The notes below the pieces were generated by a model, which did no database searches, was not told the DNA's origin, and saw only the letters and a list, made by a program, of their open reading frames with translations. Below are positions 11,815-50,966 of a stretch of 61,974 nt of DNA, piece by piece (the stretch's first letter is position 1; each line of letters opens with the position of its first letter). The DNA lies in contig CABXDM010000003.1 in NCBI GenBank assembly GCA_902510965.1, positions 1 through 61,974 on the forward strand, written 5' to 3'. A program made the translations under genes and the position numbers. Source of the stretch: an uncultured Candidatus Actinomarina sp. (GTDB lineage Bacteria > Actinomycetota > Acidimicrobiia > Actinomarinales > Actinomarinaceae).

Positions 11815-13624
11815 CTTCTTCCACAACTTCGCCGTCTACAACATCTTCACTTTCTGCATCATCAGAAGATGTGTTTTCTGCATCTTGTTGGGCTTCAGCA
11901 TATAGCTTCTCTGCGAATGATTGACTTGCTTTTGTTAGTTCCTCAATGGAATTTTTGATTTCATCGAGAGTAGCTTCATCATTCTCAAGCACCTTAGAAA
12001 GTGCATCTTTTCCATCAGTCATAGCTGTAACTTCTTCTTCAGTAGCTTTATCTTTATTTTCCTCAAGCATTTTTTCAGTAGAAGTAACCATACCTTCAGC
12101 TAAATTCCTAGTTTCAATAAGTTCTTTCTTTTGAGCATCTTCATTTGCATGGGTCTCAGCATCCTTGATCATTCTTTCTATTTCATCGTCCTCAAGGGCA
12201 GTTCCACCAGTGATGGTAATGTTCTGCTCTTTGCCAGTACCAAGGTCTTTTGCATTCACATTAACAATTCCATTTGCATCAATGTCAAATGTAACTTCAA
12301 TTTGAGGAGTACCCTGTTTAGCAGACGGTATCTCAGTTAGTTTAAATTTACCCAACGATTTATTACCTGAAGCCATCTCCCTTTCGCCTTGAAGAACATG
12401 GATTTCAACTTCTGTTTGACCATCTTCAGCTGTAGTAAACGTTTCAGATCTCTTAGTAGGAATAGTTGTATTTCTCTCAATCATCTTTGCAACGATTCCA
12501 CCTTTAGTCTCAACTCCGAGGGTCAATGGAGTAACATCAAGAAGTAAGACATCTTTAACATCACCTTTTAATACTCCAGCTTGAATAGCTGCGCCAGATG
12601 CGACAACTTCATCAGGATTAACTCCTTTGTGAGGATCTTTTCCTGTCATAGTTTTAACTAGAGCTTGGATTGAAGGTATTCTTGTTGATCCACCAACTAA
12701 AATAATATGATCAATATCTGAAAATGACAGACCTGCATCATCAATAGCTTTATTTACTGGATCTTTTGTTCTATCAACTAAATCAGAAGTAATTTTTTCA
12801 AATTCACTTCTAGATAACTTTTCTAGTAAATGCTGGGGGCCAGCATCATTTGCAGTAATAAATGGTAAATTGATTTCTGTCTCGCTAGTTGAGGAAAGTT
12901 CAATTTTTGCTTTCTCAGCACCCTCTTTTATTCTTTGCATAGCCATCTTGTCATTTGAGATATCAATACCGGTTGATGATTTAAACTTTTCAACCAACCA
13001 ATCCATTACTTTCTCATCCCAATCATCCCCGCCAAGTTTAGAATCACCAGCTGTTGACTTAACTTCGAAAACACCTTCTGAAATTTCTAATACTGACACA
13101 TCAAATGTTCCACCACCTAGGTCATAAACTAATATTTTCTGATCTTCGCTATTTTCTAAACCATAAGCTAAAGATGCAGCAGTAGGTTCATTGATAATTC
13201 TTAATACATTTAGGCCTGCTATTTTCCCAGCCTCTTTTGTAGCCTGACGTTCAGCATCATTAAAATATGCTGGAACAGTAATTACAGCTTCGGTTACATC
13301 TTCACCAAGATATGCTTCTGCATCTCGCTTTAGTTTCTGTAAAATTCTTGCTGATATTTCTTGAGGCGTGTAATCACTACCTTCAAATTTTTGCTTCCAG
13401 GTAGTTCCTATCTCTCTTTTAATTGATCTTATAGTGTTATCAGGATTTGTTATTGCCTGCCTTTTAGCAAGTTCACCAACAAGAACTTCTTCACCTTTAA
13501 AAGCTACTATTGATGGTGTAGTTCTATTTCCTTCTGCATTTGCGACTACGGCAGGTTCTCCACCTTCTAACACTGCGACTACACTATTGGTTGTTCCTAG
13601 GTCAATTCCTACTGCTTTTCCCAT
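11807..13624 (-). CDS. dnaK: Chaperone DnaK (Hsp70)
   Basis: [32 protein letters not shown]; SD AAAGGA upstream. Confidence 0.98.
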
Positions 13625-21534: not shown

Positions 21535-21546
21535 GTGGGAGGTGTG

Positions 21547-22575
21547 ATGAGACTGACTGAGTATTCTCGTGGATCTGGTTGAGCTTGTAAACTATCACCT
21601 AGTGAGCTTGCACAAGTTTTGTCGCAATTTAAAAATCATAAAGCCTTATCTGCCAGCAGTGTATCTGTAGGTTTAAACAACCCCGATGACGCCGGAGTCG
21701 TAAGAACTAGTGGTGAAAATCTTATCCAATCTATAGATTTCTTTACTCCAATTTTAGATAATCCTTATGACTGGGGCAGAGTAGCAGCTGCAAATGCATT
21801 ATCCGACATCTATGCCATGGGTGGAGAGCCTCTGTCGGCTTTACAGTTAGTTTGTTGGCCTAGAGACCATATTAGTTTTGATATTCTAGGAGAGGTTATT
21901 AGAGGTGGATTAGATGTCATGGAGCAAGCTAAATGCTCGGTGATAGGAGGACACAGTATTGATGATAATGAACCTAAGTACGGCTTTTCTGTAACAGGAG
22001 TAGCAAAAGAAAGAGTCTTTCTAAACAATACAATTAAAGATGGCGATAAGTTATTTTTATCTAAACCACTGGGTACTGGTGTAATATCAACCGCAATTAA
22101 AAAAGATAAAGCTAGCTCTGAGATAATTAATAAAGCTACAACAGTAATGACGACTTTGAACAATTCTGCTGCTGACGTTGCCCATAAATATAAAGCAAAT
22201 GCAGTAACTGACATTACAGGATTTGGGTTATTCGGTCATTTAAGTGAGATGTTAAAAAATACAAATCTTGGAGCAAACATTTATAGTAAAAACATCCCTG
22301 CAATTGAAGGAGCTCAAGAACTAATTCTGAACGGCTTCTTTTCATCAGGAAGCCAAAGAAACCTTGACCATGTTAAAGAATTGATAATTGACAACGCATC
22401 AGACCAAAACCTTATAAAGCTTTGTTGTGATGCTCAGACAAGTGGGGGTCTACTTATTGCTGTACCAAAAGACCAAAATATTGACATTGTAGAGATTAAA
22501 GAAAGTATGGGTTTGGAACTTTGGGAAATAGGTGAAATAAATACTGACTATATCGAAAAGATAAATATTATTTAG
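21547..22575 (+). CDS. selD: Selenide, water dikinase, selenocysteine-containing (UGA at codon 12, 21580-21582)
   Basis: ATG 21547 reads MRLTEYSRGSG-U-ACKLSP, in frame with ORF 21619..22575 (DDAGV, DFFTP, AAANALSDIYAMGG, DITGFG, QTSGGLL). Aligns with SelD RLTQYSHGAGCGCK. SD-like AGGTGGGAGGT upstream. Confidence 0.93.
21583..21617 (+). promoter_or_regulatory. Candidate bacterial SECIS hairpin
   Basis: GCTTGT (21583-88) pairs with ACAAGT (21612-17), enclosing TCAC-CTA-GTGA, immediately 3' of the UGA. Confidence 0.55.
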
Positions 22576-22580
22576 TAATA

Positions 22581-23501
22581 ATGATTAAAAAATTAACAAA
22601 ATATTTTGCTTTCGCTACTTTGTTGAAAAATTTAATTGGCACTAAAAAAGCTCAGACCGAGGGCTTAACTCAAATTCACCCAACAAAAATACCTGGGAGA
22701 ACAGTTTTTGTGCGAGAAAAAGAATACTTTATTCGTGAATCTTACGTAGGTAACACAATCCCAATTATCTTTCTACACAGTTGGGGCTCTGACTCACTAG
22801 GAAGTTGGTTTAAAATTCTCCCTTTCTATGAAGAAAAAAATTCTTTTGTAACAATCGATATGAAAAATCACGGAAAATCCGACTCAAGTTGGAAGAGGTG
22901 GGATGTTGATGAAAACGCAGATGTAGTAATCAGCATATTAGATCAACTAGACATAGAGAAATGCAATATAGTTGGATGGTCAATGGGAAGTGCGGTAGGA
23001 CTTAGCATTTCAAGGAAGAAGAGAGAGCTTGTAAATAAAATGGTTCTCATCACACCATTTAGTTGGCTCGGAGGTGCTGTATATAAAGATAAACCCCTCT
23101 TTAAATTTTTTGTAGCAACGGTGAGAATCAGAGAGAGATTATTTCCAAATATGAATCCAAAATCTAAATATTCACATTTACGTAAAACTGGTGCATTAGG
23201 AAATGAATACACTGACTGGGCCTGGAATAATTTACATAAATCTAAAGATGACTTCATATATGAGGATGGTGGAAGATATGTTGTGCCATACGATGCAAGA
23301 CCCTGGTTAAAAGAAATTGATACAGAAACATTAGTCATCACGGGTGGAAAAGATAATTTAGTGCCTGAGGAGACTTCTCAAGAAGTTATAAAAGATCTAG
23401 CAAATGTAAATGAAATAATCTTTGATAATGCAGCTCACTCAATTCCATGGACACATGACGAACAATTATTAATTGAATTAGACTCTTTTTTTAAAGAATG
23501 A
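22581..23501 (+). CDS. Alpha/beta fold hydrolase
   Basis: FLHSWG, IDMKNHGKS, nucleophile GWSMG, GGKDNLV, AAHSIPW. Confidence 0.85.
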   Translation: MIKKLTKYFAFATLLKNLIGTKKAQTEGLTQIHPTKIPGRTVFVREKEYFIRESYVGNTIPIIFLHSWGSDSLGSWFKILPFYEEKNSFVTIDMKNHGKSDSSWKRWDVDENADVVISILDQLDIEKCNIVGWSMGSAVGLSISRKKRELVNKMVLITPFSWLGGAVYKDKPLFKFFVATVRIRERLFPNMNPKSKYSHLRKTGALGNEYTDWAWNNLHKSKDDFIYEDGGRYVVPYDARPWLKEIDTETLVITGGKDNLVPEETSQEVIKDLANVNEIIFDNAAHSIPWTHDEQLLIELDSFFKE

Positions 23502-24628
23502 AGAATGTACTTTTCATAGCTCCTACAACTTACAAACTTCCTCTTGATAAGAATATGCGTAAAAAGTTTGAGTACTTGTCAGAAATTTCCAATCTAAATG
23601 TAATTGCATTTGCAAATGAAAAAAAAGAAATGAATTTGGAGAATGCGAACCTTTACTTTTTCAAGAAAACAAAAAGCCGATTTTATAATTATTTAAAGAT
23701 AATGGTAGTTTCTTTGATTTCTATGAGGAAAATTATAAAAGATAACAATATAGAAATAGTCTGTTTTCAAGATCCAGTATCAAGCTTTCTTTCAATGCTG
23801 ATTGTGAAAAAGAGATATAAAAGCATCAAAGTAATTGTAGAAACACATGGGGATTTTATAGAAACTCTTGGCTTAGAAAAAAACTTATTATTCCCGAGTC
23901 TATACAAATATATCTTCCAAAGGTTGTCAAGATATACGATTCATAATGCAGATATTATTAGGGCGGTGTCATCCTCAACTGAAGCTCAGGTAAGAAAAAT
24001 AAATAAGTCAAAAACTATCGTACGCTTTCCGGCTTGGGTCGATTTTGATGACTTTAAAGATATTAAAATTAATAGAGATAAAGATTCAAAATTTCGAATC
24101 TTATTCATAGGAAGTGTGACAGATAGAAAAAAGCCTCATTTAATTGTTGAAGCATTAAATTCTATTAAAAAAGAAAATGTTGAACTTTTAATTGTAGGGC
24201 CAACACCTAATTCTAAATATTTAGAAACTTTAAAAAACTTAATAAGTGAATATGCCTTAGACGACAATGTTAAATTCTTTGGAGAAGTAGACAGGGAAAG
24301 GGTAAAAAGTTTTTATTCTGAAATTAACTTAATGATTTTACCCTCTGTATCAGAGGGTCTTGCAAGGGTTATATTTGAATCACAAGCTACGGCCTGCCCC
24401 GTTCTAGTAACCGATGCACCCGGCATGGGGGATATTGTTATAGAAGGTCAGACTGGCTATATCTTTGAAAGCAATAGTATCGAAAGTTTAGCTACAAAGA
24501 TAAACCAAGTCGAAGAAAATTATGAAGAGGCGATACATATAGGCACTAACGCAAAAGATTTTATTCTAAAAAACTATTCAGCAGAAAACTTTAAGTTTAG
24601 TTTTAAAAAGATTTTCGATAGCGTTTAA
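23498..24628 (+). CDS. Glycosyltransferase family 4
   Basis: ILFIGSVTDRKK, LPSVSEGLARVIFESQA, VLVTDAPG. Confidence 0.88.
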   Translation: MKNVLFIAPTTYKLPLDKNMRKKFEYLSEISNLNVIAFANEKKEMNLENANLYFFKKTKSRFYNYLKIMVVSLISMRKIIKDNNIEIVCFQDPVSSFLSMLIVKKRYKSIKVIVETHGDFIETLGLEKNLLFPSLYKYIFQRLSRYTIHNADIIRAVSSSTEAQVRKINKSKTIVRFPAWVDFDDFKDIKINRDKDSKFRILFIGSVTDRKKPHLIVEALNSIKKENVELLIVGPTPNSKYLETLKNLISEYALDDNVKFFGEVDRERVKSFYSEINLMILPSVSEGLARVIFESQATACPVLVTDAPGMGDIVIEGQTGYIFESNSIESLATKINQVEENYEEAIHIGTNAKDFILKNYSAENFKFSFKKIFDSV

Positions 24629-28796: not shown

Positions 28797-28839
28797 AGCC
28801 CTTTTATAATATATCAAAACAACATGAAAGGTATTAAAA

Positions 28840-45590: not shown

Positions 45591-48113
45591 TTATTTTTCA
45601 AGGATACTTTCATCCAAAGTACTATTTATATGTATCACTAGATTCATATTAGCTTCAAGCTTTTCTAATTTTTGCGCCATAAGTTTTTCTGCTGACGGTA
45701 AAGGATTTGCCATTATGAATGATCTTATATCATCTCCCAGCTCGCGGTCAAAAATCGCATCAAGACCAGAAAGTATTCTAGAGGCTGTCCATTCTGGCAT
45801 AACCCCTAATAAACCTGAATAATTATCTTTAATCTCATTCCAAGAGTCTTTCCCCGTAACTTTATTTGCAATCATTGATGCCAAGATATACGGACAATCG
45901 GCCCCTCTTATTGTGCCATCTAGCATTGACTGAACAATGATTTTGCCAGCATTAGGGTCTCTAACTACTCCTAGAATTGCCCTATACCTTCCTTCAATCT
46001 GTGGTGATCCTGCATTTAAGAATTTCTCCAAAAAATGTTCAATTTTTATTTCTGGATCTAGTGCAGAGATGTATAAGGTAGTGTTGTAGAGGCTGCCATC
46101 TTCAATACTTTCGATACTTCCATCTTTGAATTTACTGCTATAGAAATCTACAAAAGATTCATCATTTTCTATTGTTCCTATTAATTTATTAATAGTTGCC
46201 CTTAATTCTTTAATTTCCATAGAATCAGAATCTTTTATTTCTTTACCTAAATCATTTTTAATCGAATCAATAAGTTCATTGAAATAATTAACAAAGGATA
46301 CATTACTCTCATTTGGAAGGATTTTAGACAAAGAGGAAATTATACCAGCTACATAAGCCCAAATATTAGGGTCTCTTTCTGACTTATAAATTGGTAAAAA
46401 TTCTAAGAATTCATTAATTGAAAACTTTCCAATAGTTACTGATTTCCAAGTGTCTTCTAGAAGTCTATATTTTTCTAATGAATTAAGCTCATTAAAGCTT
46501 TCTTTTATCTTTGTAAATATTTCGGCATCATAAACAACATGATAAAAAGCCCAGCCACCATTATTGATAAAAGGTATTTCGCCCAATGCGTCTAATTCAA
46601 TTGTTTTTGAGTTTTGTACAAGTGTATGAACTTTTCCTGTATCTAAAAACCTGACATTAACAGGTATTTCCCAAAGTGAATCATCAGTTGAGCCATCAAT
46701 CAAAAATTTTGACTGTTCCAGAATAAATTTACCACCTGATTTACTTACTTTAATAATTGGAAATCCTGGTTGCTTAATCCAGGTTGGCAGCATTTTATTT
46801 AAAGGAAGTTTACTTGCTTCACTTAAAGATTCCCATAAATCCGAAGAATGAGTGTTTTCAAATTTATATTTGTTTAGATATTGCTGCACACCTTTTTGAA
46901 AAACCTCTTCTCCAACAAACATCTCAAACATCCTTAATACAGTCGATCCTTTTTCATATGTAAGAACATCAAACATTTCTTCAGCTTGTTCTGGAGTCTC
47001 TACTTCAAACTCAACAGGTCGAGAGTTTTTTAATGAGTCAACTCCAAATCCTGCACTTCTAGAAAGGTTCATTTCACTCCACTGATCGAATTCGGGATAG
47101 GTTCCATTAGCTGCAATTGCTTCCATCAAACTTGCAAAAGCTTCATTAAGCCATATACCATCCCACCATTTCATCGTAACTAAATCTCCAAACCACATAT
47201 GTGCAAGCTCGTGTGCAATAACACTTACGGACCTTGAAAGTTCCTGGCGAGTAGCCTTGGACTCATCAATAAGAAGCAAGCTTTCACGAAATGTTACCGC
47301 CCCAACATTTTCCATAGCTCCCATGGCAAAATCAGGTATAGCAATGAGATCAAGCTTTGAACCGGGATAAGGTATTTGGTAATAATTTTCAAAAAACTCT
47401 AAGATCTTCATACCAGCAGTACCCGCAAAACTAGTTTGATGAGAAAAACCAGGTCTGTGAATTATTCTTATTTGTGTATCACCAATGCTGCCTACCTCGG
47501 TAACCTCAAGTTCACCTATAACAAAAGCTACAAGATAGGTTGACATTTTCATTGAATCTACAAATAATGTTTCAACCCTACCATCCTCTAATTTATTTTC
47601 TCTGAGCACTTTTTCATTAGATACCCTCAGGTACTTTTCGTCTGATGTCAAGGATATGGAAAATACTGCTTTATATTCAGGCTCATCCCAGCAGGGAAAA
47701 GCATTTCTTGCTGAAGTCGGTTCAAACTGAGTTGTGGCAATCCATTTTTCATTATCATTTAAATCTAAAAACTGGCTTTTATAAAATCCTTTTAAATCAT
47801 TAGTAATGGTTGAATTGAATTCAAGCTGTAGTGAGTATTTCCCAACAGGTATATTTTCACTTGCAGTAAAAGATATTCTCTCTAGGTCTCTTAAGTATTC
47901 AAAAGTAAGATCAAATTCTTTTTCATCTTCATTAAAAAGTAATGCGCTGATTATTTCAATATCTATGGCGTTAACTTCAAAAGATTTAGTCTCTTTTATT
48001 ATCTCAAGTTCAACATCTTGAGAACCAGTATATTTAAAGTTGGATAAGTCGATGTCAAGTTTGACTTCGTAGCGTACAGGTTTTGCCACCTTTGGTAATA
48101 TTGCTTTATTCAT
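45591..48113 (-). CDS. pepN: M1 family aminopeptidase N
   Basis: TQFEPTSAR.AFPCWDEP, GAMEN, AHELAHMWFGDLVT..WW..IWLNEAFA, YEKG. Start set at ATG 48113. Confidence 0.95.
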   Translation of the reverse strand: MNKAILPKVAKPVRYEVKLDIDLSNFKYTGSQDVELEIIKETKSFEVNAIDIEIISALLFNEDEKEFDLTFEYLRDLERISFTASENIPVGKYSLQLEFNSTITNDLKGFYKSQFLDLNDNEKWIATTQFEPTSARNAFPCWDEPEYKAVFSISLTSDEKYLRVSNEKVLRENKLEDGRVETLFVDSMKMSTYLVAFVIGELEVTEVGSIGDTQIRIIHRPGFSHQTSFAGTAGMKILEFFENYYQIPYPGSKLDLIAIPDFAMGAMENVGAVTFRESLLLIDESKATRQELSRSVSVIAHELAHMWFGDLVTMKWWDGIWLNEAFASLMEAIAANGTYPEFDQWSEMNLSRSAGFGVDSLKNSRPVEFEVETPEQAEEMFDVLTYEKGSTVLRMFEMFVGEEVFQKGVQQYLNKYKFENTHSSDLWESLSEASKLPLNKMLPTWIKQPGFPIIKVSKSGGKFILEQSKFLIDGSTDDSLWEIPVNVRFLDTGKVHTLVQNSKTIELDALGEIPFINNGGWAFYHVVYDAEIFTKIKESFNELNSLEKYRLLEDTWKSVTIGKFSINEFLEFLPIYKSERDPNIWAYVAGIISSLSKILPNESNVSFVNYFNELIDSIKNDLGKEIKDSDSMEIKELRATINKLIGTIENDESFVDFYSSKFKDGSIESIEDGSLYNTTLYISALDPEIKIEHFLEKFLNAGSPQIEGRYRAILGVVRDPNAGKIIVQSMLDGTIRGADCPYILASMIANKVTGKDSWNEIKDNYSGLLGVMPEWTASRILSGLDAIFDRELGDDIRSFIMANPLPSAEKLMAQKLEKLEANMNLVIHINSTLDESILEK

Positions 48114-49497
48114 TCTCTCTCCAATCAATGTGTATGTATTCTTCCGAATCTAATAGCTGTACAGTATGGCTTCCAAAGTAATCTCTTTGTGCCTGAATTA
48201 AGTTAGAAGGATTACTGTCAGAGCTTAAGTTCAAATACCAACTTAGACTGGATGATAATACTGGTAGAGAAATATTATTTAATATTGAGCTGCTGACTAC
48301 ATCTTTGACAACACTTAAGTTATCTTTCAACAAATTATGTAAAGATTCTGATTTTAAGAAATCTTCAGCTGTTTTATTAATCTCCAACAACTCATCAAGC
48401 ATCTGAGATCTAATAATGCATCCTCCACTCCAGTTATTAAAAATATCCGAATAGTTAATAGATAAATCGTTAACTTCACTGTATTTATGAATTATTTTAA
48501 GCCCCTGAACCATTGCAGCTACTCTCCCAAAATAAAGAGCCTTGCTGAGGTTTGATTCATTAATAACTTTATTAAATGAATAGTCGACTTCTAACATGGT
48601 ATCTTCATTTTGATTAGCAGTTTTTTTCCAAGTGTCAGCAGCATTACTTTGGACTCTTGCATCGTAGGCAGCGTATATTGAGGGCGCTGAAATACCTAAT
48701 TCGAATGAAGTTTCTATGGTTAGTTTTCCGGTTCCCTTATTGTTAGCAAAAGGTTTTATCAAATCTAAAGTAAAGACTTCACCATCTTTCTTTCTTAGTA
48801 TTTCACTTGTGATTTCAATTAAATAGGATGATTGATTCATCCCTTTTAGGGATTCAAAAAACTCTGCAATCTCAATATTGCTGTATTCAGCGTACTTTAA
48901 GAGATAGTAAGCCTCTGTAATTAGCTGCATTTCTGCATATTCAATACCATTGTGTACCATTTTTATAAAATGACCAGATCCGTGGCCTTTGTAAAGCCCT
49001 ATGCAATCATTAGGTGCTTTTGCAGAAATTGCGGTCAGTAGTTCAACCAATTCATCACTGAGATTATTAGCTGAGCCTATCATGATAGCTGGTCCATGTC
49101 TGGCACCTTCTTCTCCACCAGAAACACCCATACCAACAAATTCGATGGACTTTGATGAAAGAATATTTCCATGGTTCTCACTTTCTTGATAAAACGAATT
49201 GCCACCATCAATAATTACATCGCCCTCATCTAGTAGATTTGAAAGTTGGTTTATGACGGAGTGAGTAGGCTGTCCAGAGGGAATCATTAATAAGATATTG
49301 CGGGGGCGTTCAAGATTATCTATGAGCTCTTCTAACTTTGTGAATCCAGCAAACATGCCACCAAATTCTTCACTAATTACATCTATTTTTTCCCGAGAGC
49401 CATTGAATGCTTTTACAAAGGTACCCTTTTCAGCAATATTAAGGGCAATATTTTTCCCCATAACACCAAGGCCAATCAAACCAATTTCACTTAACAT
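48106..49497 (-). CDS. gnd: 6-phosphogluconate dehydrogenase (decarboxylating)
   Basis: GLIGLGVMG, IIDGGNS, GVSGGEEGAR, KMVHNGIEY, NKGTG, QAQRDYFGSH. Confidence 0.95.
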   Translation of the reverse strand: MLSEIGLIGLGVMGKNIALNIAEKGTFVKAFNGSREKIDVISEEFGGMFAGFTKLEELIDNLERPRNILLMIPSGQPTHSVINQLSNLLDEGDVIIDGGNSFYQESENHGNILSSKSIEFVGMGVSGGEEGARHGPAIMIGSANNLSDELVELLTAISAKAPNDCIGLYKGHGSGHFIKMVHNGIEYAEMQLITEAYYLLKYAEYSNIEIAEFFESLKGMNQSSYLIEITSEILRKKDGEVFTLDLIKPFANNKGTGKLTIETSFELGISAPSIYAAYDARVQSNAADTWKKTANQNEDTMLEVDYSFNKVINESNLSKALYFGRVAAMVQGLKIIHKYSEVNDLSINYSDIFNNWSGGCIIRSQMLDELLEINKTAEDFLKSESLHNLLKDNLSVVKDVVSSSILNNISLPVLSSSLSWYLNLSSDSNPSNLIQAQRDYFGSHTVQLLDSEEYIHIDWRENE

Positions 49498-50818
49498 TTT
49501 TGAATTCCTTCATAAGTTTCAAATCTAATAATTTGTGTATTAATTTACTTCTCATTCTTATTTCTAATAGTAATAAATCAGAACTATTTGTAACTTCTAA
49601 AATTTCACCAAATCTATTAACTTTTTCTAAATCTTTTGGCTCCACCAAAAACCAATCTTGTTGAACCTCTCCATATATTTCGCTCGAAATTCTTTCTACA
49701 AGTTCTTCAATTCCAGTATTTTTCAGAGATGAGATAAAAAGAGCCTGAGGATACCTCTCAGTTAGGTCATTTAACGAAGCTCTGTCAAGCCTGTCTATTT
49801 TATTGAATACCATTATTTCATTTGCACTAACATTTATTTGTTCAAGAATATTTCTAACAGTACCTATGTGCATCTGAGGTATAGCAGTTGCTGCATCAAC
49901 TACATGTATTAATAGGTCTGCACTAGTTGCTACTAAAAGGGTAGATTTAAAAGACTCTATTAAGGTTGTTGGAAGATTTTGTATAAAACCAACGGTATCT
50001 GACAAAATTAACGGTTCTTGTACATTTTTTATTGGAAGCTCTCTTTGCAGTGAATCCACAGTAGCAAAAAGTTCATCTGCTATGTAAGCCTCTGAATTTG
50101 TTAACGATCTTAATAATGTAGATTTACCGGCGTTGGTGTATCCAACGATTGAGACTAAAGGTGTATTATTTTTTTCTCTAGAACTAGCCTGAAGAACTCT
50201 TTGTTTTTCAATTTTTCTTAATTCTTTACGAAGCTTATTTATACGATTATCAATTAACCTGCTGTCTGTTTCTAGCTTGGCCTCACCTGGCCCCCTAGTG
50301 CCAATACCGCCACCCTGTTGATTTAATGTTTTACCTAATCCTGCAAGTCTAGGTTTTAGGTACACAGACATTGCAAGTTCTACTTGGAGGTTTGCTTCTT
50401 TAGACTGTGCATGTAAAGCAAAAATATCAAGAATTAAACCAGTTCTATCTACTACGTCACATTGAAATATTGCTCGCAACTCTTTTTGCTGATTGGGGCT
50501 AAGTTCGCAATCAAAAACTACCACATCAATATCATTGGCCTTTGAAAGTTCTTCTAGTTCATTAATAGAGCCCTTACCAATGAATGTCTTTGGATCAATT
50601 CGATCTATTCTTTTTGTTTGAATTATTGTTGGATTAGATCCAGCAGTTTTTACAAGACTTGTTAACTCTTTTAAAGACTCTTCACGGTCAGCTCTAGTTT
50701 GATTTTTAAGAATTATTCCAACAAGTAAGGCTTTTTGTACTGTTACAAAAATATCTTTATCAGATACTGTTAATAAGCGTCTATCAGTTTGATTTGGATT
50801 GTTATTTCTTTGATTCAA
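49487..50818 (-). CDS. hflX: Ribosome-splitting GTPase HflX
   Basis: VVDRTGLILDIFA, GGIGTRGPGE, GYTNAGKS, LFATVD, DTVGF, NKID. TTG start approximate. Confidence 0.95.
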   Translation of the reverse strand: MNQRNNNPNQTDRRLLTVSDKDIFVTVQKALLVGIILKNQTRADREESLKELTSLVKTAGSNPTIIQTKRIDRIDPKTFIGKGSINELEELSKANDIDVVVFDCELSPNQQKELRAIFQCDVVDRTGLILDIFALHAQSKEANLQVELAMSVYLKPRLAGLGKTLNQQGGGIGTRGPGEAKLETDSRLIDNRINKLRKELRKIEKQRVLQASSREKNNTPLVSIVGYTNAGKSTLLRSLTNSEAYIADELFATVDSLQRELPIKNVQEPLILSDTVGFIQNLPTTLIESFKSTLLVATSADLLIHVVDAATAIPQMHIGTVRNILEQINVSANEIMVFNKIDRLDRASLNDLTERYPQALFISSLKNTGIEELVERISSEIYGEVQQDWFLVEPKDLEKVNRFGEILEVTNSSDLLLLEIRMRSKLIHKLLDLKLMKEFKNVK

Positions 50819-50871: not shown

Positions 50872-50966
50872 TGGCGGAGGTGGACGGGAATCGAACCCGC
50901 CAAAGACTTTTACACCTTTCACCAGTTTTGAAGACCGGGGAGCCCACCAGGCGCTCATTCACCTCC
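50872..50966 (-). tRNA. selC: tRNA-Sec (anticodon TCA)
   Basis: 95 nt: GGAGGTGA..., 6-bp D stem with TGGT loop, CCGGT-CTTCAAA-ACTGG anticodon arm, long variable arm, 13-bp acceptor+T helix, G discriminator, encoded CCA. Confidence 0.95.

Follow-up and report, generated by a model that had tools for sequence, protein, structure and literature searches.

The stretch of DNA analysed here, referred to as the window, comprises 61,974 nucleotides of a Candidatus Actinomarina MAG (810 kb in 37 contigs, 66.7% complete, 34% GC), in keeping with the AT-rich, streamlined actinobacterial host that a preliminary description of the sequence had named. On its forward strand lies a predicted full-length selD gene (21547..22575), a coding sequence of 342 amino acids plus stop in which codon 12 is a TGA (21580..21582) that would be read as selenocysteine (Sec). 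Translated through this codon, the frame runs from the ATG at 21547 as MRLTEYSRGSG, TGA, ACKLSPSELAQVL..., to the TAG at 22573–22575. The ATG lies 12 nt past the stop codon of an upstream aminotransferase-like gene and is preceded, with a spacing of 4 nt, by the Shine-Dalgarno motif GGGAGG, read from the sequence at 21537..21542 of the same strand; GGAGG-type motifs are found in the same place in congeners. In the list of open reading frames selD begins instead at a forward-strand TTG (21619..21621), the false start chosen by automated gene callers, which falls within the 3′ arm of a hairpin described below (hairpin 2), and the resulting protein of 318 amino acids is without the Gly-rich loop. 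The preliminary description had already pointed out both that the listed start loses the active site and that an upstream ATG with a Shine-Dalgarno motif opens the frame MRLTEYSRGSG-TGA-ACK, and both observations stand. Two genes downstream of selD, also on the forward strand, is a GT4 glycosyltransferase (23498–24628). A link to selenoneine via this gene was considered and rejected: it scores only 49 bits with the SenB profile TIGR04348 (cut-off 300), other GT4 families score better, and we judge the match to SenB to be ordinary GT4 similarity.

The read-through product is recognised by the selD profile TIGR00476 at 370.8 bits (cut-off 125), with residues 2–310 aligned to profile positions 1–310, and by NF002098 at 332.1 bits (cut-off 299). 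Both AIRS domains of the PurM-like fold, N- and C-terminal, are found (PF00586, 84.9 bits; PF02769, 66 bits). In a phmmer search of solved structures, alignment with E. coli SelD (3u0o, E-value 4e-74) places residue 12 on Cys17, C14 on Cys19 and K15 on Lys20, so that the loop G-S-G-U12-A-C14-K15 stands opposite G-A-G-C17-G-C19-K20; residue 12 also falls on the site at which Sec was engineered to Cys in Aquifex aeolicus SelD (2yye/2zod, E-value 1e-69). The equivalents of D51, D68, N87, D91 and D227 of E. coli SelD, which we take to be metal/ATP ligands, are kept in the 3u0o alignment. Given these profile scores and structure alignments, homology to SelD is already unambiguous, and the earlier assignments of the gene to selD and of the UGA to the position of Cys17, with the Cys19 and Lys20 equivalents intact, are borne out. 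The E. coli protein belongs to the same family and has the same fold, but carries Cys at position 17 instead of Sec and hence needs no recoding. The A. aeolicus chain, by contrast, reads S-S-G-C-A-A-K with C at the natural Sec site, whereas the Actinomarina sequence G-S-G-U-A-C-K keeps the Cys19 equivalent. These comparisons show that without decoding of UGA-12 the gene yields no complete SelD.

In the alignment of SelD homologues around the UGA that had been proposed at the outset, codon 12 is TGA in all 63 related loci from two genome collections (64 of 64 with the genome G009 added) and a Cys codon, TGT or TGC, in none. Neither TAA nor TAG ever takes its place in the 63 loci, over which the Cys codon beside the TGA alternates between TGT and TGC, and every congeneric selD found carries exactly one in-frame TGA. 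Among relatives at the level of the class, five SelD homologues are free of in-frame stops and a further two contain a TGA. Start codons are variable over the 63 loci (ATG in 23, TTG in 23 and GTG in 17, i.e. non-ATG in 40). In the ten codons upstream of the TGA the amino acids are preserved, although each is spelled by two to five synonymous codons (Leu, for example, by five, and Thr, Ser and Gly by three each), and purifying selection is seen over the 33 nt before and the 36 nt after the TGA. Since the changes in the upstream codons are mostly synonymous, this stretch appears to be translated and selected. With the TGA fixed and preceded by selected codons, it can be put down neither to chance or an error in sequencing nor to a nonsense mutation of recent date, and truncation of the gene is likewise excluded. 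The same pattern suggests a Sec-SelD fixed across the genus Actinomarina rather than polymorphic.

Two stem-loops can be drawn downstream of the UGA. The preliminary description had stated that a hairpin follows immediately, which holds to the extent that a fold including the UGA can be drawn: a long stem (21581–21620) with an apical stem-loop nearest the UGA (hairpin 1, 21592..21606, forward strand) is the minimum free energy (MFE) structure of nucleotides 21580–21622 of the window, at −9.9 kcal/mol. The statement fails in that this fold has a z-score of −1.18, with 24 of 200 shuffles equally stable, and that the conserved, covarying hairpin lies further on, 29–48 nt downstream. Hairpin 1 itself is weakly supported: 82–84% of cells are paired, the register shifts between clades, covariation is weak, and one position is unpaired in 11 of 20 sequences.

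The structure chosen by RNAalifold is the second stem-loop (hairpin 2, UUGCACA-AGUUU-UGU(C)GCAA, 21608..21627, forward strand), a probable bacterial SECIS with its loop at 21615–21619 and a bulged C at 21623. The stem has 7–8 bp with the one bulged C (4+4 bp), and the loop starts 32–33 nt after the UGA. Across 20 distinct sequences 97.5% of cells are paired, compared with values down to 25–51% in slid controls. Pair 33–43 occurs as U-A in 15 sequences and as A-U in five; at pair 36–40, 14 sequences have A-U and five have G-C, the G-C pair being reached via two synonymous changes (CAA to CAG and TTG to CTG). The covariation score is matched by none of 500 shuffles, and reflects a few clade-level events within a coding region. 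Loop positions G37 and U38 are invariant, although a conserved Val codon begins with these same bases. The published bSECIS consensus has a stem-loop 16–37 nt downstream with a loop of 3–9 nt, G[G/U] in the first loop positions and an upper stem of at least 4 bp, and the bSECISearch model sets an energy of at most −7.5 kcal/mol (PMC13188914). Hairpin 2 agrees with this consensus in spacing, loop G[G/U] and stem; taken by itself it folds weakly in this AT-rich gene (−5.9 kcal/mol for the 42 nt 21589–21630, z-score −0.48), at an energy above the published limit. No Rfam family matched the region around the UGA as a SECIS at either gathering or permissive thresholds, a result that carries no weight given that bacterial SECIS elements are poorly modelled. 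The functional SECIS is probably hairpin 2 rather than the hairpin abutting the UGA.

The window also carries a selC gene on the reverse strand (50872..50966), a tRNA-Sec with anticodon UCA found by ARAGORN and by Rfam RF01852 (75.3 bits, gathering score 47). It lies 29 kb from selD and adjoins hflX (49487–50818), near gnd (48106–49497) and pepN (45591–48128), rather than selA or selB. This tRNA-Sec gene, and the role of hairpin 2 as the probable SECIS, were overlooked in the first reading of the sequence. Beyond the window, tRNA-Sec passes 70 bits in 20 of 24 congeners, selA exceeds its cut-off in 21 of 24, and selB is adjacent to selA in 48 of 61. Actinomarina SelB is divergent, with about 200–216 bits on TIGR00475 (cut-off 242), and contains the SECIS-binding winged-helix domain PF09107.

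The preliminary description had looked to the rest of the genome for selA and selB, and had named their absence from a complete genome as a result that would count against it. Nothing above the cut-off was found for either in the 37 contigs of the 66.7%-complete MAG. In the nearest relative, G003, whose SelD is 85% identical, the two genes overlap by 4 nt, and all 15 genes in their vicinity are missing from the MAG assembly. Because the assembly is 67% complete and the whole G003-type selAB neighbourhood is missing along with the two genes, their absence from the MAG is uninformative, and we rejected it as a true absence. Three genomes are 97.6–98.7% identical to the window over 6 kb and hence conspecific; one of these (G077, 98.7% nucleotide identity) encodes selA followed directly by selB. 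A similar gap concerns three assemblies with long contigs, G009 (one contig of 1,012,864 nt), G010 and the conspecific G078, in which no match to selA was found, all three having a TGA-containing selD. In G009 and G010 selB was likewise not found, and a tRNA-Sec gene is present in both. The whole of G009 also lacks every one of some 30 genes lying around selAB in G003 and G008, and a recent preprint places selA at the boundary of a hypervariable region (bioRxiv 10.64898/2026.04.03.716425). For these reasons we read the selA gap in the three genomes as probably due to a break in the assembly at the hypervariable region rather than to loss of the trait. Together, the surveys show that tRNA-Sec, selA and selB are retained by the lineage.

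Further UGA-containing genes were sought by comparing the MAG with G009 and then G080 with G009 (the last two having contigs of about 1.0 Mb), requiring an in-frame TGA aligned to TGA or Cys, conservation on both sides of it, and no longer open reading frame in another frame. Unfiltered matches were mostly shadow frames of conserved genes and rRNA/tRNA regions; boundary matches at infA, rpmA, rpsB and a umuC-like gene, tRNA/rRNA DNA and contig-edge shadows were filtered out as artefacts. Four genes are left, namely selD, two thioredoxin-like genes (Trx-1 and Trx-2) and a SelW-like gene, and this count of four selenoproteins is a conservative one. The third family of the preprint, K07090, was not recovered by the scan for TGA conservation.

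Trx-1 is a membrane-anchored protein of the thioredoxin fold (PF00085, 25.2 bits) with a U-x-x-C motif in the context YSDY-U-LGC. It was found in the MAG, as a second predicted selenoprotein gene, on contig C4 (locus L193, TGA at 28805), with orthologues in G009 (355664) and G080 (312652), and occurs in 52 of 61 congeners, with one TGA in each copy. Its hairpin, AAUUCAU-AGUUA-AUGAAUU, pairs throughout (100% of cells), one position being occupied variously by U-A, U-G and C-G. Trx-2 (G080 630916, G009 686348) is a secreted or lipoprotein-type, AhpC/TSA-Redoxin-like protein with the motif FWADY-U-GIC/SIC, and its hairpin, GAGAGG-AGUUG-CCUCUC, shows a flip from G-C to C-G between the two genomes. 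The SelW-like gene (G080 88373, G009 131060; loci L223–L252) encodes a CxxU protein of 78 amino acids (EFC-V-V-U-NYTPRA) that matches Rdx (PF10262, 66.1 bits). It is present in 56 of 61 congeners, again with one TGA per copy; all cells of its stem (100%) are paired, the outer pair being U-A in nine sequences and C-G in ten and another pair alternating between G-U and G-C. Neither Trx-2 nor the SelW-like gene was found in the 66.7%-complete MAG assembly.

Common to the four UGA genes is a 6–8 bp hairpin capped by an AGUUN loop, whose G, counted from the U of the UGA, stands at +21, +22, +31 and +37. Such a hairpin follows, in G080, four of the 60 eligible in-frame TGAs, and these are exactly the four conserved genes; the background frequency is 0.27% of TGA triplets. 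The hairpins of Trx-1, Trx-2 and the SelW-like gene also fit the bSECIS description in loop, stem and spacing, and compared with that consensus the Actinomarina loop is strikingly uniform across unrelated genes. In all four genes the UGA occupies a Cys-equivalent redox or catalytic position (UxxC, CxxU and GU-x-CK). Elsewhere in the MAG, a TGA-joined open reading frame of 41 amino acids on contig C12 (TGA at 11992, reverse strand) has an all-A/U hairpin with an AGUUU loop at +41; this frame is without a conserved counterpart in G009 and probably reflects chance.

The reading that we consider very probable, on comparative sequence evidence, is that the locus holds a genuine full-length selD translated from the ATG at 21547, in which the UGA at 21580–21582 is decoded as Sec, the SECIS most likely being 21608–21627. 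Sec would take the position of E. coli Cys17, within the Gly-rich loop G-S-G-U-A-C-K near the N-terminus, and the UGA would be decoded by the Sec-tRNA(Sec) encoded by selC (50872–50966) and delivered by the divergent SelB. SelB-GTP-Sec-tRNA(Sec) would bind the hairpin at 21608–21627 and insert Sec, and the resulting Sec enzyme would make the selenophosphate that SelA uses to convert Ser-tRNA(Sec) to Sec-tRNA(Sec). As the selenium donor from which Sec-tRNA is made comes from SelD, the synthesis of SelD would then depend on its own activity. Each daughter cell presumably inherits SelD protein, enough to keep this loop going.

That the UGA is a true stop, and selD an N-terminally truncated gene or pseudogene starting at TTG 21619, is the reading taken by gene callers, which pick this frame, and it would accord with a MAG without selA and selB. 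We regard it as exceedingly unlikely, since the truncated product would be without the Gly-rich loop, Cys/Sec17 and Lys20, and since selection acts on both sides of a TGA that never becomes TAA or TAG. The Shine-Dalgarno motif ahead of ATG 21547, the position of the TTG inside a conserved hairpin and the presence of a tRNA-Sec gene count against it as well. Decoding of the UGA as Trp, Gly or Cys, whether by genome-wide recoding or by near-cognate suppression, would also leave the selD frame open. It is nevertheless very unlikely: TGA is an ordinary stop elsewhere in the genome (closing infA and rpmA, for example), the conserved in-frame TGAs found number only four per genome, each at a Cys-equivalent site with the same hairpin after it, and the genus as a whole keeps a dedicated tRNA-Sec together with selA and selB.

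A different doubt accepts Sec insertion and concerns only which hairpin directs it. If the SECIS were the stem-loop abutting the UGA (21581–21620, apical 21592–21606) rather than hairpin 2, this would suit the MFE fold of the window's own 43 nt, a loop that begins 15–17 nt after the UGA, and pair 16–24, which shows UA, GC and GU types. Yet that fold is no better than its shuffles and is incompletely paired in a clade-dependent register; its loops (CUA, ACCAA and CAA) have no conserved G/U and lack the G required by the bSECIS consensus, and the other three UGA genes have no similar hairpin, whereas the AGUUN hairpin is present in all. We consider this alternative rather unlikely. Returning to decoding with hairpin 2, we lean slightly towards a broader proposal, in which a lineage-wide SECIS (6–8 bp stem, AGUUN loop, G at +21 to +37), a fixed four-member selenoproteome and a fixed Sec-SelD would characterise Actinomarina, making it a possible major source of such proteins in the ocean. 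If this is true, the divergent SelB would read one compact SECIS design on all four selenoproteins.

In practice the finding bears on annotation. The exact SelD of 318 amino acids (21619–22575) occurs on 135 public contigs, as had been foreseen when a truncated selD was predicted to be what automated annotation records, and in a cluster of 207 members the members listed all have 318–320 amino acids. The truncated SelD is thus a systematic annotation error for this lineage, which leaves hundreds of public SelD records N-terminally truncated and without the active site. Pathway reconstructions of Actinomarina built on such records carry a SelD without active site and miss the other selenoproteins. 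Actinomarina is one of the ocean's most abundant bacteria, and its genome of about 1.1 Mb keeps selA, selB, selC and selD for about three client proteins plus SelD itself. That four dedicated genes are kept for so few clients speaks for Sec being strongly beneficial in the redox chemistry of the surface ocean. Both the annotation point and the argument from Sec benefit have already been made in the 2026 preprint (bioRxiv 10.64898/2026.04.03.716425).

That preprint, "Actinomarina, resolved" by Nielsen and Lui (April 2026; bioRxiv 10.64898/2026.04.03.716425), describes a selenoprotein form of selD with the prefix MRLT* and 342–346 amino acids, and reports that each of 84 complete Actinomarina genomes carries selC, selA, selD and a divergent selB, with YbbB absent and about five selenoproteins per genome. 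Our conclusion of an active-site Sec is the one reached there for the same gene in the same genus, and the sense of novelty in the preliminary description was overestimated. Its remark that a self-dependent Sec-SelD is a known arrangement was correct, a Sec-containing SelD from Haemophilus influenzae having been described by Guimaraes et al. in 1996, as cited in the preprint. Sec-SelD is therefore already known, since 1996 in general and in the genus itself since the preprint. As in H. influenzae and A. aeolicus, Sec would replace the catalytic Cys of the Gly-rich loop in Actinomarina, with the same dependence on the enzyme's own product, but in a different phylum and a streamlined 1.1-Mb genome.

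In other respects the two studies differ. The preprint inferred Sec-SelD in about half of the Actinomarina genomes and presumed Cys in the rest, in contrast to TGA in 63 of 63 loci here; the high proportion of non-ATG starts (40 of 63) may explain an undercount based on the prefix. It found no SECIS and called its most abundant family, of 78 amino acids, uncharacterized (bioRxiv 10.64898/2026.04.03.716425), whereas we propose a covarying hairpin with a G-U loop and, by the match in size, assign that family to the Rdx/SelW-like proteins. The additions of the present analysis would then be a candidate SECIS consensus with covariation in four genes, an apparently fixed Sec form, and the proposed SelW-like name for the 78-amino-acid family.

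The four families also match families that are among the most abundant in ocean metagenomes. In the GOS survey of Zhang and Gladyshev (2008), the most widespread marine selenoproteins were SelW-like (CxxU), SelD and Trx-like 1 (UxxC), and GOS surface-ocean samples held 357 Sec-SelD sequences (PMC2398784). The Actinomarina set consists of these same families; the GOS sequences carry no assignment to Actinomarina, and the link between the two is one that we infer, such that this abundant genus may be a major source of them.
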